Assembly: GCA_036156175.1 (NCBI GenBank)
Contig: JAYZVA010000090.1
Coordinates: 1,609-65,608 of the forward strand
Length of the DNA: 64,000 bases
Source: Myxococcota bacterium
Lineage (GTDB): Bacteria; Myxococcota_A; UBA796
Direction of reading: 5' to 3'
Under the pieces are notes generated by a model. The model was not told the origin of the DNA, did not search any database, and was given only the letters and a program-made list of their open reading frames with translations. The translations under genes and the position numbers were made by a program. Below, piece by piece: positions 21,001 through 63,984 of the stretch (position 1 is its first letter; the number at the start of each line of letters is the position of its first letter).

Positions 21001-22401
21001 TCAGTCTCCCGGCGGGTCGTCGCACACAAAGCCCTCGACCTCGAGTGCGTCGATGAGGTGCCAGTTGGTGCTTCCACCGGTCGCCGCGGTGAACCCCACG
21101 TAGGCGTCAAAGGGGACGAGTCCGTCGATCATCTCGTCGAGATACAGCACCTCATCCACCCAGAATTTCAGGTGCGGACCGGTGACTTCGAGCTTCGCCA
21201 CGTGCCACGCGCCGTCTTCCATTTCGGGGAGCGTTGCCCAGGCAACGGGCGCGTTCACGTCGCCGTCGATGTGGACGCTGACGTGGTCGAGCGCCGTCGG
21301 ATCCCAGTGCTCGCCGTTATACCAGGTGTCGACCTCGATCGACCACCCTGGAAGCCCGTAGTACCCGATGCCGCCCCCAGTGCCGCCAACAAACGACGTC
21401 ATTCGCGAGACATCGAGCATGGTGAGCGAGATGCCATCGGCGCCAGTGCCGCCCGAAACATAAAACTCCCACTCGATCTCGAGGAGATCCGAAATCACCG
21501 TCGACATGGTCTGAAAGGCGGTCCCCGCTTGGGTGGTGACCGGCGCCGTCAGCTCGACCCACTCGTTCACCGAATCCCACATGGCCGACCCCTCGAAGTG
21601 CCACGCCGCCAGGTCGATGCTGTCCTCGGTGTATCCCTCGTTCTGGCATATGGTTGTGCACGTGGACGCGGTCTGGCCGCAGGAATCGGTCACATCGACG
21701 CAGATCGTGTGGTCGCCACTCGACCGCGCTTCGCTGTTCCAAGCCAGCGAAGCGATGCCATCCGGCGCCGCGGGCAGCGACGCGACTTCACCGTCCACAT
21801 CGGAACTCCACGTCACGACAAGGTCGTTGGCCGCGTCGCGATCGTCGCTCACCGCGGCCTCGAAGACGGCAAACGCACCGGGCGAAATCACGTCACCGAC
21901 TCCGGGAGAAATCAGACTCACACTCGGCGGTGCGTCTTGCTCGACCCGAAGCGGAACCGTGCGCGCGGGGACGTCCGGGTCGTTGCTGTGAATCACCATC
22001 GTCCCCGTTCCACCCGACGACCGGGCGGTGATCAACAGCGATTCCTCCGCTGCGAGGGTGACCGGCAGCGGCCGGTGAGAAAGCGTCCACCCTTCGCCCT
22101 CGACGGCGAGGGACTCCACGACCAAGTCGCCCAACCCGATGTTGGTCACGGTGATCGTTTCTTCGTACAGCCCGCACTGGATCTCCCCGTCGACGCCGTC
22201 CGGAGTGACCATGGAGATCGGAAACTCGGGTTCCGTCGGCGGGTCATCGGGTTCACTCGGGGGCGGTGCAGCCGTGTCGACCGTGAGTTCATCGGCAGGG
22301 TTTGCGGGCTTGAAGTCGTGCACCATGTTGTACTCGGTGCACCCCAGGGCCAGTGCCGCCGCACCCGCGAGAACTCCCATGCCTGCTGCCCGACCACCCA
22401 T
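21001..22401 (-). CDS. Lipoprotein with Ig-like domains and a C-terminal L-type (legume/ConA-like) lectin domain
   Basis: Start MGGRAAGMGVLAGAAALALGC (lipobox). C-terminal sequence: GADGISLTM...GGTGGGIGYYGLPGWSIEVDTWYNGEHWDP...HVSVHIDG...GFTAATGGSTNWHLI, matching the ADG / GGxLGY / xExDT / H(V/I)xI pattern of L-type lectins. Confidence 0.65.
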   Translation of the reverse strand: MGGRAAGMGVLAGAAALALGCTEYNMVHDFKPANPADELTVDTAAPPPSEPDDPPTEPEFPISMVTPDGVDGEIQCGLYEETITVTNIGLGDLVVESLAVEGEGWTLSHRPLPVTLAAEESLLITARSSGGTGTMVIHSNDPDVPARTVPLRVEQDAPPSVSLISPGVGDVISPGAFAVFEAAVSDDRDAANDLVVTWSSDVDGEVASLPAAPDGIASLAWNSEARSSGDHTICVDVTDSCGQTASTCTTICQNEGYTEDSIDLAAWHFEGSAMWDSVNEWVELTAPVTTQAGTAFQTMSTVISDLLEIEWEFYVSGGTGADGISLTMLDVSRMTSFVGGTGGGIGYYGLPGWSIEVDTWYNGEHWDPTALDHVSVHIDGDVNAPVAWATLPEMEDGAWHVAKLEVTGPHLKFWVDEVLYLDEMIDGLVPFDAYVGFTAATGGSTNWHLIDALEVEGFVCDDPPGD

Positions 22402-22440
22402 GGCTTTAGAATGCACCCCGATGGGCCGCCTGGCAAGGAC

Positions 22441-22456
22441 CCACCGGTGGTATAAT
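22441..22456 (+). promoter_or_regulatory. Extended -10 promoter (TGgTATAAT) positioned for a leaderless transcript of the candidate selenoprotein gene
   Basis: TATAAT lies at 22451-22456, preceded by TGG (22448-22450) and the palindrome CCACCGGTGG (22441-22450). The ATG at 22464 lies 7 nt after the hexamer, and there is no Shine-Dalgarno sequence. Confidence 0.5.
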
Positions 22457-22463
22457 CGCAACG

Positions 22464-24335
22464 ATGGCTCTTCGACTGGTGGGATTCACGCTGCTGTTTG
22501 GGTGCACGGCTGCGCCCGAACAACCGTGCATGGATGGGTACTCACGGGGGGCCGATGGTCGGTGCATCAGCGAACCCGATGACGTCGCAAGCGAGACCCC
22601 GTCCGATCCGGCATCATCGGACACCGGCGAACCCATCAGCCTGGTGCGCGTGGAGTGCGCTCCAGACTCTCCCACCAACGAACCCAGCATTGAAATGATC
22701 GGGAAATACGACACCGACGACAACACCGAGCCGCCCGGATTGCTGATCGAGGCCCTCGACGGTGTGGTGGACCAAGAACGCTTCTGGGTCGTGGGCCAAG
22801 GCGGACTCTTGAGCTTCGACATCAGCGGCGATGTCCCGGAACTTGGCGACGTCTTCGGCGGCATGAGCGGGCGCTTCTACCGGCTGATGCTGGTTGATCA
22901 CGACCCGCCACTGGTCTACGCCACCCACCGGGATTCAGGCCTTCAAATCGTGGACCGCTCCGACCCATCCGACCTCCGGCTTGTGAAGACGGTGACGAAA
23001 GACGGCCTGGGCGGAATGGTTCAGGTCGGCGACCGGGTCTACGCCACGCAGCATGACGGAACGCTTGTGGTTTTTGACGCCACCGATCCGACCGCACCCG
23101 AGGAGCGTGCATCGATCGAGGCGCCGGGCCACCCGTGGAATGTCGTGGAAACCAACGGCTGGCTGTACACTGCAGACAACACCCGCGGGGTGGGCGCATT
23201 CAGCCTCTCCGACCCCGACGAGCCCGAGTTTGTCGGCCACACCGATCTGGGCAACGGCGTCCTGGACCTGGCGACGGACGGCACCCGGCTGTTCGCCGCG
23301 GCGGGTTCAGCCGGCCTGATCGTCCTCGACCTCAGCGACCCGTCTTCCCCCCGAGAGAGTGCCCGACTGTGGACGGGCTCGCCTGTGGTTGATGTCAGCG
23401 TATCGGACGCCATGGTCTGGCTGGTGGACCATGAAGCCGTGTGGGCCGTGGATGTTCGCCAGCCCGACCAGCCAACCGTGATTGGGCGCATGGAGACGCC
23501 CCGATTCGCGATGTCGGTCTGGGCCGAAGGAGACGAAGCATGGGTGGGTGACTGGACCGCAGTCGAAGGGTACCGAGCGCACCCCGAGCGCGCAGCCAGC
23601 ACGATTGTCGCTCACCCCGACACCCTGCGTCTGGCCTCCGACCGCCATGACGCCACCGTGCGGCTGGTCAATCTGGGGCCCCACGACGGCGCTCTTCTCC
23701 GCTGGGATGCCAACGAGACGGACGCCACCATCGGCGTGTCCTCGACCACGGTCGGCGCGCAGGACGGCGTGACGATCGCTGTGGACTGGCCCGAATCCAC
23801 TGGCAACGGGCAGGTCTGCCTCTTGACCAGCGACCCTTCCAACCCCACCGTCTCCATCAATGTGCAGCGTTCCGACCAACGGCTCAGTGTGCCGGTGGGG
23901 ACCGCAGCACCGGACTTTGAGCTGCCCACGCTCGATGGCGAGCGCCTGCGGCTCAGCGAGCAACTTGGGCATCCCGTGCTGCTCGTCTACTTCGCAACCT
24001 GGTGACCCGTGTGTCCGTCCGAGGTCTCGGACATCAGCGAACACATGTGGCGCGACTACCGCGACGATGGGCTGCGGGTGTGGGGCATCTCATCCACCGA
24101 CCGCGAAGCCGACCTCCGCCGATTTCGAGACCAACTCGGCGTTGACTTCCCCATTCTCTTCGATGCGGCCGGGGATGTGCACGCGCAGTGGCTGCAGGAA
24201 CTGGCGTTTCACTCTGCGGCCTACCCACAGGACTGGCTGATCGACCCCGAAGGACGCGTGGCGTACGCCAACAATCGCTACGAACCCGATGAGATCCGCG
24301 CGTTGCTTGACCAATGGTTTGACCGCGAGCCCTGA
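22464..24335 (+). CDS. Candidate selenoprotein. Domain order: lipobox, LVIVD-repeat beta-propeller, Ig-like domain, C-terminal TlpA/redoxin-like thioredoxin-fold domain with a U-P-V-C motif. The TGA at 24003-24005 is read as Sec.
   Basis: ORFs 22464-24005 and 24009-24335 are in the same frame and are separated only by the TGA. Read-through gives ...APDFELPTLDGERLRLSEQLGHPVLLVYFATW-[TGA]-PVCPSEVSDISEHMWRDYRDDGLRVWGISSTD..FPILFDAAGDV...DPEGRVAY, the canonical redoxin F-W-A-x-W-C-x-x-C block. A SECIS-like hairpin follows. LVIVD-type repeats are present (LQIVDRSDPSDL, LVVFDATDPTAP, GAFSLSDPDEP, LIVLDLSDPSSP). Confidence 0.7.
24009..24046 (+). promoter_or_regulatory. Candidate bacterial SECIS stem-loop directly downstream of the in-frame TGA
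   Basis: Upper stem GTCCGA (24017-24022) pairs with TCGGAC (24027-24032), with loop GGTC (24023-24026). A possible lower stem GTGTGT (24009-24014) pairs with ACACAT (24041-24046). The apex GAGGUCUC resembles the E. coli fdhF SECIS apex (GCAGGUCUGC, from memory). It sits 21-24 nt from the U of UGA. Confidence 0.55.
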
Positions 24336-25543: not shown

Positions 25544-25558
25544 TCGGCGGTATACAAT
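25544..25558 (+). promoter_or_regulatory. Candidate promoter -10 region (TCGGCGG-TATACAAT) upstream of the M66-like protease gene
   Basis: TACAAT at 25553-25558 is preceded by TCGGCGG (25544-25550). GGAGG at 25568-25572 lies upstream of the ATG at 25577. Confidence 0.4.
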
Positions 25559-25576
25559 CCAGCCACTGGAGGCGCG

Positions 25577-28390
25577 ATGCGTGCGATGCTCATGGCAGGA
25601 CTGGCGGTTGCGGGGTGTTCGGACGCAGCCAAGACCATCGCGGACGCCATCGCTTCTGGCGGTGACACGGCAGCTGGAGCGGATGCAAGCCTTCCAGACA
25701 CGGCGGTCGATCCCGATGACGCGGACCCGTATTCGGCGTGCGTGGATGACCTGATTCCCCCCATGGAGTGGTTCGACGACCGACTCACGCAAACCGTGTC
25801 GGGCTCGATCGAGTTCGGGCAGACGCACGTGAGCCGTCCGGACGACGACCGCTGGGCACCGCCACTCATCGAGCACCGCGCGGCACTGCTGTTGTTTTCC
25901 CCGGACGAAGCCCTGAACGATGCGTCGGATGGCCGGCTCGCCGCGTGGCGGGGCAGCGAACTCATCGGCGTGATGCGCCTCGCCCCGCCCGCACAACTCC
26001 CAACCCCGCTGGAACAGGACCTCACTGAGGTTGCGCTCGAGCCCTGGTCGACAACGGCATGGAGCGCCGCGCTTCCGTGGCAGTGGGTCGAGGAGGGCAC
26101 GCGGCTGACCATCGGCATCGATGCGGGCGACGCGGTGCTCACCGCGGAGCACACACTCACGGACCTCGGTGCTCCGCAGCGGTTCACGCTCTCCCGCTCA
26201 AAAATGGTGCTGTTCGGGGAGGCGGATCACCCGACCACAACCGAGACCGCCGAGCGAATCGGGCGTGATTTCTTTGCAGCGGTTCCCGTTTCCTCCATGC
26301 GGTGGGTCGACTCGGCTCCGTGGCGGCTCGATGAGATCGTGGTCCGGGCCGACGGCGGGCCGGTGGTCGTGGCATCCGAGGGGGAGCGGCTCAGCCAAAC
26401 CTCAGACCCCGATCGCTGGCACATCCTGAAGCATCAGTTCGCGATTGCGATGAGCCTCGCGAACACCGGGCGCGGACTGGCAAAGACCACCGGAGGCGAC
26501 AGCTCGCCGTACGCCTTCGGAACCTCCGTTGGCTCGGGTTGGGTCCGCAATGATGACGGAACCTATTCGGACCTCGACAACGCACCGTACGCCGCCGGCT
26601 GGACGGGCTGGACCGCAATGTGGCTCGGCGAGTGCGCCAATGTCTTCATCCACGAGATTGGGCATTCCTTTACGCTCGCGCACTTCACAGCCGGGACCGG
26701 CAGCGCGTGGGGAATTGGCGACGAGTACCCGCTGGACGGTGTCAACTTGGAGGCCCACCCGTGGGGCTTTGACTCGACCCGACAGCGCTTCCGCACGTGG
26801 TACCGGGTCAATGCCGACGGACCGGTGGTCGCAGAGTCCGGCGGCTGGCAGGGAAAGAGGGACCCGATGAATGGCGGGGAGTCTCCAAACTCGGCCTCGT
26901 GCTTTCCCCAGTACACGCCGTACCATGCCTGGAAGATCCAAGACTGGTCGGAGACGCGGCCAACAATTGCGCGCATCGATGGCGAACCGGGCGTGTACAC
27001 TTGGGATGCCGAGTCGCGGACCATGGTCAAGACCGAGCCGGTCGAAGACGGCTCCATGGCGCCGGTCGCGGTCGATGTTCCCGTGGTGACCGTGATTGGG
27101 ACAATTGCCCACCGACCCGAGTCAAGCCGCGTCTACCCGCCCATTCATTGGGCGAGCGGCAATTCGTTTGACTTTGCAGCACCCGGCGATGCGACCCTTC
27201 ATCCCCACTATGCGGGGTCGAACTACTTCGTGGAGATCGAATACGCCGACGGGTCGAGCGAGCAACGCCTGATTGCGCAGCCAACGGTCCCCGCCACCGA
27301 CACGGACTTGTATCTCTGGAGCGTCAACCTGGAATCAGGGCGGAGTCCCGAGCGCGTCTCGCTGTTCCAGACCGTGGATCCCCATCCTGGCATGGACGTG
27401 GCCACGGCGTCGCTGCTTCACAGCGCACGCATCGACCCGCCAGACGAACCCGTCCCCGCGCCCGTCTTGATCGGAAACGGCTTTGTCGCGAACGGTGCCG
27501 TCTCGCTCACCGAGTGGTGCGAACCCGACATCAACTGTGCCCAGCGGGCGCGGTCAACGGAGTGGGCCACTGGGGCGACCCCGCTGCGCTTCACCGAGCG
27601 GGCGGATGCGCCCGACCCGGCCATTGCGTGCAGCGAAGACGGCTCGGTGACGGAACTGGTGGTGCCCATCCAAGACCAGAGTGGGGAACGCGCGTCGCTT
27701 GTGGTCCATGCGCAGCGAACCGTCCAAACCGCCACCCACCAATGGGCCGGTCCCATCAACGACGACACACCCTGGATCGACGCGGACAACGTTCGCCAAG
27801 GGCTCCGGGCCTGGGTGCCCCACGCACCCAATGCCGATCTGCCCGTCGGCACGTGGTCGAACGCCGACCCGTACACGCTCACTGCCCTGTCCGAGGGTTC
27901 CGCATTCGCCACGGTGCCCTTGGTCATCAACCTCACCATCTTGCCCACTGACGCGGTCGATGTGGGCGGCGGGTACGAAGGCCCGTCCGTCACCACGGAG
28001 GGCAGCTCCACGTTCTTCACGGTCGATGACCCCGCCATGGGACCAACCGAGGGCGTCTGGTGGGGCAGTTCGGCCGCAACGCCGCTGACCATTCCCGTTC
28101 GGAACACCGCGACCGGCGCCACCACGCAGCTTCGGCTCGATGGGTGGAAACGCAGCTGCGACCTCGGGTGGGGCACGTGGTGGTCTCTGAACTCCGCCCA
28201 GGTCGCCGATGGATCCTGTGAGCAGCGGCCTCAGCTCGCGGTCTCGTCGAGCGGAAATGAGCACCTTGAGTCGGGCGAAACCTACGCCAGCCCGCCATCG
28301 GGACCATTGATTCTCCGGGCCCACGCCTGGCATTTGGGCAAACGCATCGTCGATACTCGCGCGATTGAGGTCACCTACACCGTTCCCTGA
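25577..28390 (+). CDS. Large lipoprotein with an M66 (StcE/TagA)-like zinc metalloprotease domain
   Basis: Start MRAMLMAGLAVAGC (lipobox). FIHEIGHSFTLAHF is an HExxHxxxxxH motif, as in M66 HEVGHNYGLGH. About 450 C-terminal residues have no family that I recognise. Confidence 0.65.
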   Translation: MRAMLMAGLAVAGCSDAAKTIADAIASGGDTAAGADASLPDTAVDPDDADPYSACVDDLIPPMEWFDDRLTQTVSGSIEFGQTHVSRPDDDRWAPPLIEHRAALLLFSPDEALNDASDGRLAAWRGSELIGVMRLAPPAQLPTPLEQDLTEVALEPWSTTAWSAALPWQWVEEGTRLTIGIDAGDAVLTAEHTLTDLGAPQRFTLSRSKMVLFGEADHPTTTETAERIGRDFFAAVPVSSMRWVDSAPWRLDEIVVRADGGPVVVASEGERLSQTSDPDRWHILKHQFAIAMSLANTGRGLAKTTGGDSSPYAFGTSVGSGWVRNDDGTYSDLDNAPYAAGWTGWTAMWLGECANVFIHEIGHSFTLAHFTAGTGSAWGIGDEYPLDGVNLEAHPWGFDSTRQRFRTWYRVNADGPVVAESGGWQGKRDPMNGGESPNSASCFPQYTPYHAWKIQDWSETRPTIARIDGEPGVYTWDAESRTMVKTEPVEDGSMAPVAVDVPVVTVIGTIAHRPESSRVYPPIHWASGNSFDFAAPGDATLHPHYAGSNYFVEIEYADGSSEQRLIAQPTVPATDTDLYLWSVNLESGRSPERVSLFQTVDPHPGMDVATASLLHSARIDPPDEPVPAPVLIGNGFVANGAVSLTEWCEPDINCAQRARSTEWATGATPLRFTERADAPDPAIACSEDGSVTELVVPIQDQSGERASLVVHAQRTVQTATHQWAGPINDDTPWIDADNVRQGLRAWVPHAPNADLPVGTWSNADPYTLTALSEGSAFATVPLVINLTILPTDAVDVGGGYEGPSVTTEGSSTFFTVDDPAMGPTEGVWWGSSAATPLTIPVRNTATGATTQLRLDGWKRSCDLGWGTWWSLNSAQVADGSCEQRPQLAVSSSGNEHLESGETYASPPSGPLILRAHAWHLGKRIVDTRAIEVTYTVP

Positions 28391-28440
28391 GCACCCCATC
28401 GGTGTAGACGCGGACCCGCTCGTCATCTACCCTGTTGTCG

Positions 28441-29679
28441 ATGATCAATCGCCGCGAGTTCGGACTGCTTTCAATGGGGGCCCTGTGCCCGCTTCGCGCG
28501 GTCGCCGATGGCACCGCGGCAGAACGCAAATTCGTGTTCATCTTCAACGATGGAGGCTGGGACACCAGTCACGTCTTCACGCCACTCTTTGGGGTCAGTG
28601 GCGCCTACATCGAAGAAGGCGCCACCCGCCGCACAGCGAACGGCATCGAGTACATCGACCACCCTGCCCGACCGGCCGTTCGAGAGTTCTTCGAGCGTCA
28701 CGGTCAACAAGCGGCCGTCATCAATGGAATTGAGGTTCCATCGATTACGCATGAGCGGTGCCGAGAGCTCATCTTGACCGGATCCGGCGCGCTCGCGGAT
28801 GACTGGGGAGCGATCCTTGCGGGGCGCTCCGAGCGGAACCTTTTGCTCCCTCATGTGGTCCTGGATGGGCCGGCGTTCACCCAGACCTTTACGGATCGGG
28901 TGGTCCGAATCGGGGACGCGAACCAACTGCCCAGCTTGCTGGACAACACCGCATTCTCGCTGTCCGCGCTGCCGATCACCGAACTCGGGATCGACGCGGA
29001 GGCGATGGCCGATGCATTCGTGGCGGAACGGGCATCCCGTCACGGCGGCGCGTTCGGCACCGATTACCGAAACGCGCTGGACCGCATTGCCGAGCTCATG
29101 GCGTGGGACGACCTCCAGCTTGACAGCATGATCGCGGGTTGCGAGCGCGACATTGCGGCGGATTGCGCCCTGGCCTTTGACCTGTTCGAGGCCAACCTCA
29201 CCCGCTGCGCCATGCTTCGGTACAAAGGATGGTGCTCCGAAGGGTGGGACACCCACCAAGGCCTTGACCTGCAAGGGCGCAACTTTGGCGACCTGTTCGC
29301 GTACCTCAACGAGGCAATGGATGACCTCAATGGTCGGACCGCAGCATCCGGGAACCCCTTGGCCGATGAAGTCACCATCGTCGTGTTCAGCGAAATGGGG
29401 CGGGAGCCGACCCTGAACACGTGGGGCGGTCGGGACCATTGGACCTTCACAAGCGCCATGATGATCGGGTCGGGCGTCCGGGGGGGCACCGTCGTGGGCT
29501 CGCTGGATGAATCCGGCCGGGGGCGGCGGGTTGACCTCGACACAGGAGCGGCAACGGACGGCGGACGCCTCATGGGGCCCGATGACTTCGGCGCCACGCT
29601 GCTCGCCCTCGGCGGCGTGGACCCCGCCCCCTTCGTCGGCACCGAGCCCGAGCCGATTCGAGCGGTGCTCCAATCGTGA
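28441..29679 (+). CDS. DUF1501-family protein (sulfatase-like fold) with twin-arginine signal
   Basis: MINRREFGLLSMGALCPLRAVA (RR motif); FIFNDGGWD...SEMGREPTLN..GRDHW. A TACCCT box lies 7 nt upstream of the ATG. Confidence 0.75.
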   Translation: MINRREFGLLSMGALCPLRAVADGTAAERKFVFIFNDGGWDTSHVFTPLFGVSGAYIEEGATRRTANGIEYIDHPARPAVREFFERHGQQAAVINGIEVPSITHERCRELILTGSGALADDWGAILAGRSERNLLLPHVVLDGPAFTQTFTDRVVRIGDANQLPSLLDNTAFSLSALPITELGIDAEAMADAFVAERASRHGGAFGTDYRNALDRIAELMAWDDLQLDSMIAGCERDIAADCALAFDLFEANLTRCAMLRYKGWCSEGWDTHQGLDLQGRNFGDLFAYLNEAMDDLNGRTAASGNPLADEVTIVVFSEMGREPTLNTWGGRDHWTFTSAMMIGSGVRGGTVVGSLDESGRGRRVDLDTGAATDGGRLMGPDDFGATLLALGGVDPAPFVGTEPEPIRAVLQS

Positions 29680-30026: not shown

Positions 30027-30853
30027 TTCTGTGGCTGCTCGCCTGCGCGGGAACGCCAACCGTCACCGAACGCGCCTCCCCCCACGCCCAACCCGGAACG
30101 GCACCCAGCACCGATACCGGTGAACCCGGGTTGCCCGCGGTCGCCGTGGAAGAACTGGAGCCCTCATGGAGCCCCGAGGACGTCGGCGAACGCCTGGCCA
30201 CGGCGCTGGGCCAGATGCCGGATCCCACCGAAGCGGTCAACACCTATGCCAACTTGATGCGTCAAGGCGATGCGGTCTGCCCGGGTTCGGAACGGGTGAT
30301 CGTCGACACCTGGCTGTATGGGTGTGATGCATCCACCGGGTACAGCTTCGCGGGGGTCACCGACTGGCTCACCGGTGAATACGATGTCGCCGGGCAGCCG
30401 ATGGAGATGGAAGGCGTCGCCGGTGATTTCTGGATCGACACCCCAGAGGGACACCGACTGGAGGGCGGCGGAAACGCGGTGGTGCTCACCGATGGTTCGA
30501 CCTGGATCGGCGATCTCACGGGAAGCTGGCGATACTCCGGCGGCAGCGACTGGTTCGCGTACGGCTTCAGCGGCACCGTGTCGATCCAGCACCTGCCGGG
30601 ATTGTTCACCCTCGCGGAAGGGGCAGCCGATGTGCTCGGGACCCACATGGCACTGCACGAACTGATGCTCCCCGATGCCTGCAACGGCGGAGCCCAAGGC
30701 GATCTTTCCCTGCGCGACCCCAATGGCGGGTGGTACCGAATTGCCTTTGAAGGCTGCACGGAGTGCGGGCCCATCACCTTCGAGGGCACCCCAATCGGCG
30801 AGGCATGCGTCGACTTTGGGCCCTTCTTGGCGCGCATCGGGAGCTGGCCATGA
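30023..30853 (+). CDS. Hypothetical lipoprotein
   Basis: The GTG start overlaps the upstream stop (GTGA at 30023-30026). VILWLLACAGTP lipobox. I recognised no family. Confidence 0.55.
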   Translation: MILWLLACAGTPTVTERASPHAQPGTAPSTDTGEPGLPAVAVEELEPSWSPEDVGERLATALGQMPDPTEAVNTYANLMRQGDAVCPGSERVIVDTWLYGCDASTGYSFAGVTDWLTGEYDVAGQPMEMEGVAGDFWIDTPEGHRLEGGGNAVVLTDGSTWIGDLTGSWRYSGGSDWFAYGFSGTVSIQHLPGLFTLAEGAADVLGTHMALHELMLPDACNGGAQGDLSLRDPNGGWYRIAFEGCTECGPITFEGTPIGEACVDFGPFLARIGSWP

Positions 30854-32454
30854 TTGTCGCGCTCTGGCTCGCCTGCACCTCGGCGGACCCCGAACCATCG
30901 GCCGGTCACCGGGGCACCGCCGACGCCATCGAAGACACCGCGTCGGGCTCGCTTCCCCGGGCTCGATTGGACGATGCCGCATGGTTGCGACGCGTCAGCT
31001 TCGATCTCCGGGGCGTGCCGCCAACCACCGCCGAACTGGACGAGTTGAACGACGACCCTTCGCTTGCCCCCAACCTTCGGGACGCGATGATGCACAGCGC
31101 GCGCTTCGAGTCGCGAATGGTGAACGCGCTGGCGGAGCGGTGGCACACCCGAGTCGACGAGTTCGACATCGTCGCCTTCGACTACGGCTTGCCTTCGAGT
31201 GCGGAATACGAATTCGAGCGGGCGGTGGGCGAGGAACCCCTGCGGCTCTTGGCCCGCATCATCGCCACCGATCGGCCCTGGACCGACGCGGTGCTGGCGG
31301 ACTGGACGATGGCCACCCCGTTGCTTGGCGAGATTTGGCCCATCGACTACCCCAGCGGCGAGTCCGGGTGGCAGCCCGCTCGGTACACCGACGGCAGGCC
31401 TTCAGCCGGCGTGCTCTCCACCAACGGGCTGTGGTGGCGGTACACGACGACCGACTCGAACATGAACCGCGGACGCGCTGCAGCCATCTCGCGACTTCTG
31501 CTGTGCGAAGACTACCTGATCCGCCCGGTGGCGTTTTCGGAAGCCGACACATCGGGCACCACCACCGCCGATGCGGCCCAGGAAGATCCGTACTGTCTGG
31601 CCTGCCACTCCAGCCTCGACCCCATCGCGGCATCCCTGTTTGGGTTTTGGTGGATGTCGCTGTATTCGCGGATTGAGGAGACGACCTACCACCCCGAACG
31701 CGAGGCGCTCTGGGAACAATACCTGGGCGTCAGCCCTGGCTGGTACGGGGAACCGATCAGCGGACTGAGTCAACTGGGCCCGTCCATCGCGAATGACAGC
31801 CGCTTCTTTTCGTGCGCGGTGGAATCGATGGCCGAGTTCGTCTGGCGTCGCCCGGTCACCGCAGACGATTCCGATGCCATCGAGTCGCTGCGACGCGGGT
31901 TCTTGGAGGGCGGTGCCGTCGTGCGTCCACTGATTGGCGCGCTGACGGAGGCCGACGCGTACCACGATGCCGAGCCGCGCATGATGACCCACGACCAGTT
32001 TGCTGACACCGTCGAGGCGCTCACTGGGTTCCGGTGGACGCACGAGGGGTACGACATGCTCGACACCGACCGATTGGGGCACCGGCTCCTGCTGGGAGGC
32101 GTGGATGGCATTGCCAATCGCGCACCGCAAGATCGACCGGGGCTCACCTGGGCACTGGTGGTCAAGCGGACGGCGGAGGCCGCCGCATCGCATGCGGTCG
32201 AGCGGGAGCTGGTCGACGGCGGCGAGCGGCGTCTCTTTCGGTTCGTGACCTTGGACACCGTGCCCGATGACGACGACTTCGAACGCGAACTTCGCGGATT
32301 TCACCGGGGCTTCTACAGCCGGGATGCGCCCGATGAATGGGTCGACGAGATGCGCGAGCTCTGGTCGGCGTTGGCGGCCATCGGCACGCCAACCGAAGCG
32401 TGGCAGGCGACCGTGTCCGTGATGATTCGGGACCCGGCATTTTTGACGCACTGA
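30850..32454 (+). CDS. DUF1549/DUF1553-like protein (the usual partner family of DUF1501), lipoprotein
   Basis: The ATG overlaps the upstream stop (ATGA). MIVALWLACTS lipobox. WLRRVSFDLRGVPPTTAELDEL is a DUF1549-like block, and DPYCLACHSSLDPIAASLFGFW is a C..CH..DP block. Confidence 0.6.
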   Translation: MIVALWLACTSADPEPSAGHRGTADAIEDTASGSLPRARLDDAAWLRRVSFDLRGVPPTTAELDELNDDPSLAPNLRDAMMHSARFESRMVNALAERWHTRVDEFDIVAFDYGLPSSAEYEFERAVGEEPLRLLARIIATDRPWTDAVLADWTMATPLLGEIWPIDYPSGESGWQPARYTDGRPSAGVLSTNGLWWRYTTTDSNMNRGRAAAISRLLLCEDYLIRPVAFSEADTSGTTTADAAQEDPYCLACHSSLDPIAASLFGFWWMSLYSRIEETTYHPEREALWEQYLGVSPGWYGEPISGLSQLGPSIANDSRFFSCAVESMAEFVWRRPVTADDSDAIESLRRGFLEGGAVVRPLIGALTEADAYHDAEPRMMTHDQFADTVEALTGFRWTHEGYDMLDTDRLGHRLLLGGVDGIANRAPQDRPGLTWALVVKRTAEAAASHAVERELVDGGERRLFRFVTLDTVPDDDDFERELRGFHRGFYSRDAPDEWVDEMRELWSALAAIGTPTEAWQATVSVMIRDPAFLTH

Positions 32455-62559: not shown

Positions 62560-63984
62560 ATGATGAGGCATGCGATTTGGGTCGTGGCAGCGGCCATGGG
62601 GTGCGTCGAGGCGCAGTACGCAACCACCGAGCCGCCGGAGACCTCCGGTGTGGCAGACACCGGGAGCGCGCCCGCCACGCCGGTGGATGGCCAGGTGGCC
62701 TTCCAGGGCACCTACAACGCGCCGGATGCCCTTTTGTTCGAATGGACCATGGACGACGGCGAAACGGCCGAACTCCGCGTCAGCGGACCCGATGGCTTTG
62801 AGGCCATGGTGCCCGGACTGAGCGGCTCGACCCACACCCTTCAAGCGCTGGCCGACGGCGAGTACCACGCAACGGTGACGGTGCGCCACGCCGACGGCAG
62901 CCAATCCGCCGCGTCGCTCACCCAGCTGGTCGGCACCAACCGCTTGGTCTACCGCTCCGAGGTGCCGCTCGACCGCGCGATGGATGTGTGGGGGACCGGG
63001 GACGTGGCCGTGGTTGGTGGCGGAACCAACAGCCGAACCAGCGCGTTGGTGGTGGACATCTCCACCGCAACCCAACCCGACGGGCTCCACACGATGACCG
63101 GAATCGGGTTCGTGAGGGACGTGAAGGTCTTCGATGATCTGCTCTTCACCGCGGTGGACCCAAACTCCGACGGGTGCGAGCTCTGCGATGACATCGGCGT
63201 ACGAATCTACGAGTTCAGCAACCCGGCCGAACCGAAGCTGCTGTCCACCATCGGCTCGCCCGCCTGGGCGGTGCACAACATGACCTACAGCAACGGTCAC
63301 CTGTACCTGGCCAGCATGGCCGAGGGGTCCGTGGCCGTCTTTGACGTGCGCGACCCGGCCGAACCGACCCGCGTGGCCACGTGGTACTCGCAAGAGGCCC
63401 CCGGCTTTGCCCACGGCCCGGGCGGCTCCACCCACGACATGACCGCCCAAGGCGACCGGTTGTATGTGGCCCACGTGACCGGCTTCAGCATCGTCGACAT
63501 CGCCGATCCCACCAATCCAACGACCTTGTCCGATACCCGGGTCAACATGGGCATGCACAACGTGTGGCCCAACGCGGATGGCACGCGGCTGGTGGGCACC
63601 CAAGAGATCTTCGGGGGTGCGCTGTCCCTGTGGGACATCTCGGACCCCGAGAACATCGCGTTGTTGGACAGCCGCTCAAACGGCGACGACCGCTGCGTGC
63701 ACAACGCGTACTTCGACGGCGACACCGTGTTCGCCGCCTGGTACATCGACGGCGTGTACAGCTTCACCGTCGATGACGACACGCTGGTGGAGACGGGACA
63801 CTACGACACCTACGACGGCGCCCCGCCGGCACCGCCCGACGGCGCACCGCCACCCGGACCGCCCATCGAGGGCGCGTGGGGTCTCTGGACGTACGGCGAC
63901 CACGTTGTGGTCGGCGACACCGAGCGGGGAATGGTCGTCGTGGACCACTTCCCGCGCGTCATCAAGCAGTCGTCCTACCGGTAA
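62560..63984 (+). CDS. LVIVD-repeat / choice-of-anchor-B-like beta-propeller lipoprotein
   Basis: Lipobox AAAMGC. Repeats: HNMTYSNGHLYLA...VAVFDVRDPAEP, HDMTAQGDRLYVA...FSIVDIADPTNP, LSLWDISDPENI, HNAYFDGDTVFAAWY. Confidence 0.75.
   Translation: MMRHAIWVVAAAMGCVEAQYATTEPPETSGVADTGSAPATPVDGQVAFQGTYNAPDALLFEWTMDDGETAELRVSGPDGFEAMVPGLSGSTHTLQALADGEYHATVTVRHADGSQSAASLTQLVGTNRLVYRSEVPLDRAMDVWGTGDVAVVGGGTNSRTSALVVDISTATQPDGLHTMTGIGFVRDVKVFDDLLFTAVDPNSDGCELCDDIGVRIYEFSNPAEPKLLSTIGSPAWAVHNMTYSNGHLYLASMAEGSVAVFDVRDPAEPTRVATWYSQEAPGFAHGPGGSTHDMTAQGDRLYVAHVTGFSIVDIADPTNPTTLSDTRVNMGMHNVWPNADGTRLVGTQEIFGGALSLWDISDPENIALLDSRSNGDDRCVHNAYFDGDTVFAAWYIDGVYSFTVDDDTLVETGHYDTYDGAPPAPPDGAPPPGPPIEGAWGLWTYGDHVVVGDTERGMVVVDHFPRVIKQSSYR

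Follow-up and report, generated by a model that had tools for sequence, protein, structure and literature searches.

A predicted lipid-anchored selenoprotein of Myxococcota in which an LVIVD beta-propeller and an Ig-like domain precede a TlpA/ResA-type redoxin

TlpA-like domains are known to occur in fusions with other modules; in Neisseria PilB, a TlpA-like reductase domain is covalently fused to the module that it serves (MsrA/MsrB). Among the catalogued predicted prokaryotic selenoproteins, in whose motifs U stands for selenocysteine (Sec), are a "Prx-like thiol:disulfide oxidoreductase" (PF00578, UxxC/UxxU), a "Redoxin family protein" (PF08534, UxxC) and a "thiol-disulfide isomerase-like" class (cd02966, UxxC; PMC13188914, PMC9312934). 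LVIVD repeats have been treated in the literature as cell-surface interaction modules (PMC2447325; bioRxiv 10.1101/2022.05.06.490989). Here, we describe a gene located at positions 22464–24335 of a 64,000-nucleotide stretch (hereafter, the window) of Myxococcota bacterium DNA (assembly GCA_036156175.1, contig JAYZVA010000090.1, positions 1,609 to 65,608), in which a propeller built of such repeats, an immunoglobulin (Ig)-like domain and a redoxin domain are encoded in one frame that is interrupted by a single TGA. We suggest that a single gene at this locus probably encodes an exported selenoprotein with a lipid anchor, in which the UGA at 24003 is read as selenocysteine.

Translation of positions 22464–24335 yields 624 codons starting from an ATG at 22464, with the TGA at 24003–24005 as the sole internal stop. 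A first open reading frame (ORF; 22464–24005) ends at this TGA and the same frame runs on to 24335, with an unbroken GC content at third codon positions (0.77 before and 0.76 after the TGA). The sequence context (...LLVYFATW-*-PVCPSEVSD) puts the TGA where a thioredoxin-type CxxC motif has its first Cys. For comparison, genomes were scanned with one genome per species (species-representative metagenome-assembled genomes, MAGs), giving 71 loci with 75 gene copies including tandem duplicates, or 76 copies with that of the window. All 76 copies carry TGA at this codon, in the context YFAT[WF]-U-P-x-C, the stretch P-x-C-x-S-E-V-S-D directly after the TGA is conserved across them, and amino-acid conservation peaks across the TGA. 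An ATG, GTG or TTG is found no more than two codons past the TGA in only 8 of the 76 copies; in most copies, the first possible start lies at least ten codons past it, beyond the resolving Cys. An earlier note, based on the letters of this DNA, had proposed a single read-through product with the domain order described below, and had named the regular occurrence of the two ORFs as separate genes in relatives as a finding that would speak against it. We find instead that the motif continues across the TGA with no conserved start behind it and that the architecture is conserved in relatives; the two ORFs are therefore never independent genes there. Taken together, these observations make a strong comparative case for Sec decoding at the predicted recoding site.

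The signal for recoding the UGA is probably a GGUC-looped hairpin immediately downstream, a putative bacterial selenocysteine insertion sequence (SECIS). The 6-bp stem (GUCCGA-GGUC-UCGGAC) lies inside the coding sequence, 17 nt after the UGA, and its spacing and loop resemble those of E. coli fdhF. In the 76-copy alignment, the hairpin is paired in 95.3% of cells, compared to 18–53% in slid-partner controls, and two pairs covary, with a covariation score that none of 500 shuffles attained. In nine sequences, two Ser codons are swapped (TCC..TCG to TCG..TCC); both changes are synonymous and convert a C-G pair to G-C in a compensatory manner. Moreover, G-C at the closing pair is replaced by C-G in three sequences and by A-U in two. 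A divergent subgroup (YFATF-U-PVC-SLEFPD) bears another peptide and another hairpin (GUCUGGA-GUU-UCCGGAC) in the same place.

Protein databases hold almost exclusively the halves of these genes. A search of 5.8 billion proteins returned 42 family members, 41 of which end exactly at ...YFATW; the sole member that runs through, P0014 (642 residues, FFATWCPHC), has a TGC codon aligned to the Sec codon. With HMMER on 1.84 billion representatives, about 75 family clusters (at 50% identity) were found within the top 150 matches, only two of them full-length and both of these Cys forms (P0121 and P0128). A search with the redoxin domain retrieved eleven tail fragments of 86–108 residues that had been called as separate genes and, apart from these, two distant stand-alone proteins (32–36% identity) but no close stand-alone relative. 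Named database records all read "hypothetical protein", and the entries, which end in ...YFATW or are tail fragments, carry no functional name. Gene callers thus always split the family proteins at the UGA, and the family is so far unannotated.

Sec is kept in about 97% of the sampled lineages, and its predicted use is near-obligate in the family. Whether relatives share the domain order, and whether they carry Sec or Cys, had been posed as a question beforehand; the architecture is conserved in them, genomic copies invariably have TGA, and the full-length Cys versions found number only three, P0014 and P0121 (FFATWCPHC) and P0128 (YFATWCPQC). P0128 lacks the SEVSD peptide, with SHTSN in its stead, and reads CPQCASHTSNID, while in P0014 (P0014/P0121, L072:13-1941) SAEVSD is kept and the hairpin stem is weakened. 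With the peptide of the SECIS region relaxed in one Cys form and the hairpin weakened in another, the apparent protein conservation after the UGA therefore seems to be in part an RNA constraint.

To describe the architecture, Pfam was searched with Cys substituted at the internal stop, residue conservation was counted over 65 full-length relatives, and AlphaFold2 (AF2) models were obtained for the window's own 513-residue product (mean predicted local distance difference test score [pLDDT] 86.6, predicted template modelling score [pTM] 0.80) and for the full-length Cys homologue P0014 (pLDDT 87.1, pTM 0.83), which show the same plan. We confirm the lipobox signal LLFGC that the earlier note had read at the N-terminus; 63 of the 65 relatives share its Cys14, and 62 of the 65 have a lipobox-like motif. 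From this predicted lipobox, export and a lipid anchor follow, but not the "surface" exposure that had been attributed to the protein. The short Cys hairpin listed next in that note is modelled as a beta-hairpin, though it is optional (19/65 relatives); it is followed by an acidic linker (residues 35–64) that is disordered or of low confidence. The invariant Cys65 behind this linker may form a disulfide with Cys452 of the Ig-like domain (23817–23819; present in 59/65 relatives), which would staple the N-terminal segment to that domain.

Pfam LVIVD matches the propeller region in two stretches (E = 3.8e-12, 45.8 bits versus a cutoff of 20.2). In the AF2 model, 28 strands between residues 76 and 372 form seven four-stranded blades (pLDDT mostly >90), and P0014 is alike; the "about five" LVIVD repeats counted earlier were thus an undercount. 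The Ig-like domain was rightly anticipated: residues 381–469 form a beta-sandwich in the window model and, while the window's own segment has no Pfam match, the equivalent segment of P0014 matches PF22544 (HYDIN/VesB-like Ig) with 27.2 bits against a cutoff of 25.5 (P0150, 22.4 bits). One shortened copy (L059:412-1760), of the divergent ATF-U-PIC...LEFSD type, retains the TGA, the hairpin, the N-terminal segment and the redoxin, with most of the propeller seemingly deleted as judged by tblastn.

The C-terminal domain matches Pfam AhpC-TSA over residues 478–601 (E = 1.1e-25) and Redoxin (E = 3.1e-16), so that Pfam supports the redoxin as well as the LVIVD assignment, and its equivalent adopts a thioredoxin fold in the AF2 model of P0014 (residues 507–641). 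The predicted active site reads W513-U514-P-V-C517-P-S-E520, with P588 as the candidate cis-Pro. U/C514, C517, E520 and P588 are each found in 65 of 65 relatives, the first three within the conserved block G-x-P-V-x-L-x-Y-F-A-T-W-U-P-x-C-x-S-E-V-S-D. The closest solved relatives are 2LS5, ResA, the Etrx lipoproteins and DsbE/CcmG. None of the curated NCBIfam models recognises the read-through protein, the best being ResA (3e-17, 63 bits versus 170), with DsbE (27.9 versus 123) and TlpA (15.5 versus 230) also below their cutoffs, and there is no match to choice-of-anchor B (TIGR04312) either. The redox domain, as judged from its residues, carries the marks of TlpA/ResA/DsbE reductases, i.e. the preceding Trp, the glutamate of CxxCxxE and the conserved Pro loop. 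The peroxiredoxin signature P-x3-T/S-x2-C(U) is absent from it, the residues before the Sec (...LLVYFATWU) being Ala at -3, Thr at -2 and Trp at -1. Because these marks are present and that signature is missing, a selenol/thiol-disulfide reductase is favoured.

Based on these results, we suggest that the protein is most likely an extracytoplasmic selenol/thiol-disulfide reductase for which the propeller-Ig module provides a partner-binding platform. The mature protein would comprise, in order, the lipidated Cys, the flexible acidic linker, the seven-bladed propeller, the Ig-like spacer and the W-U-P-x-C-x-x-E redoxin. The target of the U514 selenolate would be an extracytoplasmic client, attacked at a disulfide or at some other oxidised centre of sulfur or selenium, and C517 would resolve the mixed intermediate, giving rise to an intramolecular selenenylsulfide. 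Re-reduction might proceed via a membrane conduit of the CcdA/DsbD type, as assumed by analogy. The rigidly attached propeller-Ig module may select or hold the client or partner; such a role as substrate- or partner-binding platform is a reasonable reading, and the simplest one, of this large and well-ordered part of the protein, and agrees with how LVIVD repeats have been viewed in the literature (PMC2447325).

Several observations weigh against this interpretation. Sec decoding would require selA, selB, selC (tRNA-Sec) and selD in the genome; no tRNA was found in the 64-kb window. Compared to shuffles, the folding energy of the hairpin does not stand out in a sequence so rich in GC (z = -0.22), and no Rfam family matched in the window; the SECIS case therefore rests on conservation and covariation. 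The propeller lacks a recognisable binding or catalytic signature, and its Foldseek matches in the PDB are generic WD40/BamB folds only. In all-against-all clustering of flanking ORFs from 72 loci, no partner appeared in more than 11 loci, so that the surroundings give no hint of a client. While the recoding signals, the identity and order of the domains, their conservation and the near-obligate use of Sec are shown by the present data, which way catalysis runs, what donates the electrons, which client is served and what the propeller does are inferred.

An alternative function is that of a selenol peroxidase (Prx/GPx-like) that renders peroxides harmless, either in the periplasm or on the cell surface, with the propeller as a mere scaffold or anchor. 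AhpC-TSA is indeed the top Pfam match, Sec at the attacking position is typical of peroxidases, the habitats of the family are oxic and aquatic, going by sample names, and the NCBIfam peroxiredoxin models PrxQ/BCP and PrxU give weak matches (1e-6 to 1e-4). However, all these models stay far under their cutoffs (PrxQ/BCP, 28 bits versus 140–260), the top NCBIfam and PDB relatives are of the ResA/TlpA/DsbE type, the F-A-T-W-U sequence found where a peroxiredoxin would have P-x3-T/S-x2-C is that of WCxxC reductases, and the ResA/TlpA-typical glutamate of CxxCxxE is invariant. We therefore regard a peroxidase as unlikely.

It is also conceivable, but quite improbable, that the propeller itself is an enzyme and the Sec-redoxin its built-in electron donor, as in PilB, whose TlpA-like N-terminal domain feeds MsrA/MsrB. 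The pTM of 0.83 for the P0014 model suggests a fixed arrangement of the domains, and a set of polar and aromatic propeller residues (E96, R137, R156, D205, Y235, D238, D330, D363 and W364) is invariant or near-invariant, as is a GQGG turn. Yet the conserved propeller residues form no metal-binding pattern and no His/Cys cluster for a metal or cofactor, the fold matches generic WD40/BamB scaffolds, and LVIVD repeats appear in the literature as interaction modules without described catalysis (PMC2447325; bioRxiv 10.1101/2022.05.06.490989).

A further alternative, in which translation truly ends at the TGA or the TGA is the lesion of a pseudogene, leaving a 513-residue propeller lipoprotein and a separate or untranslated 108-residue ORF, agrees with gene callers and public records, and some UGA termination is expected under selenium starvation, but this explanation is effectively refuted by the invariance of the TGA across dozens of species, by the highest amino-acid conservation spanning it, by the lack of a conserved downstream start codon, by the thioredoxin fold that would be cut mid active site, by full-length homologues that align Cys to it and by the hairpin covariation.

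The preferred reading, a selenol/thiol-disulfide reductase with a partner-binding platform, has a more far-reaching and tentative extension, which we consider unlikely as things stand, namely that the propeller-Ig module is a dedicated client-recognition or catalytic device, making the protein an extracytoplasmic selenoenzyme with built-in substrate targeting. It could then be, for instance, a selenol-driven reductase with which aquatic Myxococcota act on particular proteins of the envelope, the matrix or the surface of prey, and the retention of Sec in about 97% of lineages would mean a chemistry beyond the reach of Cys.

The family is one of uncultured Myxococcota. Labels of the MAGs in which its loci lie read Myxococcota, Deltaproteobacteria, Myxococcales or Nannocystaceae, Myxococcota and Deltaproteobacteria accounting for nearly all loci, and no isolate genome is among them. 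The samples, going by their names, were taken from lakes, rivers, estuaries, ocean water and activated sludge. Some MAGs have two or three loci (e.g. JBCBLB, with L010, L041 and L062), and tandem copies occur at L012 (101, 1921), L032 (7636, 9435) and L050 (9054, 10922). Several "binchicken" co-assembly bins (L001, L004, L005, L009, L014 and others) titled "uncultured Enterobacterales" or "Klebsiella sp." also carry the gene, which outside them is typical of Myxococcota; these labels are probably placeholders or wrong taxonomy. A 485-residue extension past the Sec codon in one copy (L004:6848 onward) was discarded as an artefact, a masked run of N having removed the real stop.

Features of the locus, and of the second LVIVD lipoprotein gene, are collected in Table 1.

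Table 1. Coordinates (window positions) of the features discussed; functional assignments are predictions.
Feature	Positions	Strand	Basis or remark
Complete read-through gene	22464..24335	+	623 residues + terminal TGA 24333-24335
Lipoprotein signal peptide, lipobox LLFG-C14	22464..22505	+	Read from sequence
Optional Cys hairpin C22-x11-C34	22527..22565	+	Beta-hairpin E26-28/E34-36 in window model
Cys65	22656..22658	+	Conserved in 65/65 aligned copies
Seven-bladed LVIVD beta-propeller, residues 76-372	22689..23579	+	Pfam LVIVD; AF2
Ig-like beta-sandwich, HYDIN/CFA65/VesB type, residues 381-469	23604..23870	+	AF2 strands
TlpA/ResA-type thioredoxin-fold redoxin domain, residues 476-623	23889..24332	+	Pfam; solved relatives
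Predicted UGA selenocysteine codon, residue 514	24003..24005	+	TGA in 76/76 copies
Putative bacterial SECIS-like stem-loop	24008..24047	+	Folding; 76-copy alignment
Conserved upper stem; apical loop GGUC 24023-24026	24017-24022 with 24027-24032	+	
Second LVIVD lipoprotein	62560..63984	+	LVIVD 5e-11

The second LVIVD lipoprotein exists as the earlier note had stated, yet it does not prove, as was claimed there, that the propeller is a module and the redoxin an add-on. It is too distant from the read-through protein (28% identity over 156 residues, E = 6e-8) and differently built, with a sub-threshold N-terminal PKD match ahead of its propeller, and we rejected it as proof of modularity. Its match to choice-of-anchor B (TIGR04312) reaches 53 bits against a cutoff of 100. 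The same protein shows a very weak match to the methanethiol oxidase MtoX (E about 1e-3).

Within its genomic surroundings, the gene appears to stand alone. Neighbours recur only in a clade-specific manner, i.e. a sulfatase-like gene downstream (8 loci), a DsbA-like gene upstream (6) and an FG-GAP/ASPIC-like gene (6), and the conserved neighbourhood of the 72 loci contains no CcdA/DsbD gene. In the window, unrelated neighbours include a convergent 149-residue ORF, an HhH-GPD glycosylase, CoA-transferase subunits and HtpG. A scan for promoters and terminators around the gene gave nothing informative, and the other in-frame stop junctions of the window (3259, 39307, 44391 and 21001) lack a Sec-like context.

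The divergent neighbour at 21001–22461 (- strand) is a predicted lipoprotein (...LALGC) with a Big_7 Ig segment; it also has a legume-lectin-like beta-barrel, whose score misses the Pfam cutoff (62.5 versus 78.3 bits). Further downstream on the + strand lie a large StcE/TagA-type metalloprotease (25550–28390; Peptidase_M66, 3e-23; TagA lipoprotein, 1.6e-8), a DUF1501 protein (28408–29679) and a PSCyt2/PSD2/PSCyt3 protein (30751–32454; DUF1549/1585/1588). A DUF1501 and PSCyt2/PSD2/PSCyt3 gene pair is typical of Planctomycetes-type genomes.

As a consequence of the splitting at the UGA, the whole family is mis-annotated in public data, where its members appear as shortened "hypothetical proteins" accompanied by orphan fragments. 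We counted no fewer than 76 gene copies and about 75 clusters (50% identity), and a genome can contain as many as three paralogous loci. With a dedicated model, the affected records could be corrected, and the selenoproteome of the Myxococcota, a phylum on which both reviews of catalogued selenoproteins are silent (PMC13188914, PMC9312934), would grow. Moreover, selenoproteins with a thioredoxin fold are mostly small and offer no clue to what their clients might be, whereas here a large, putative interaction module provides a handle on the substrate, and the rare Cys forms provide a natural case for asking when Sec is irreplaceable.

The closest described systems for the redox part are TlpA, ResA, CcmG (DsbE) and Etrx1/Etrx2 of S. 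pneumoniae, with which the family shares the thioredoxin fold, a W-C-x-x-C-x-x-E motif, the candidate cis-Pro loop and a predicted extracytoplasmic anchor; the best sequence relatives in the PDB are 2LS5, ResA (1ST9/3C71), Etrx (2YP6/4HQZ/4HQS) and DsbE. It differs from TlpA/ResA/CcmG in that Sec is predicted to replace the attacking Cys and in that about 460 residues of propeller and Ig-like domain, rather than a bare anchor, precede the redoxin. As its score stays at 63 bits where the ResA model demands 170, and all other curated cutoffs are missed as well, the protein is no equivalog of the named members. A multi-domain ResA-like selenoprotein is also represented by the long form of NCBIfam NF041054, "ResA-like WAxxUGC motif-containing protein"; the motif there is UGC as opposed to UPxC here, and with 22.9 bits against a cutoff of 300 the read-through protein is not a member.

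PilB, the precedent for a TlpA-like domain joined to what it serves, has another partner module and another domain order, and does without Sec. On the propeller side, the family resembles the LVIVD or "choice-of-anchor B" surface propellers, in which PF08309 repeats likewise form a beta-propeller in exported proteins. In the non-family LVIVD matches returned in our searches, the modules found alongside the propeller are FlgD-Ig, Por-secretion or PKD, and no redox domain was seen among them.

With the catalogued UxxC selenoproteins, the family has both the Pfam domain and the UxxC motif in common. Those classes are defined by domain and motif only, and it is by the class descriptions that we set the present family apart: the term "propeller" is absent from both reviews, and "repeat" and "lipoprotein" are absent from PMC13188914 (PMC13188914, PMC9312934). 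No paper in the searched literature mentions both LVIVD and selenocysteine. The suggestion of the earlier note that the LVIVD-redoxin fusion is not a described family thus stands insofar as neither a description nor an NCBIfam model was found for it, but Sec-redoxin classes as such have already been catalogued. The C-terminal domain fits their definitions by domain and motif and is therefore of a known kind; what is new is the architecture and not the chemistry.

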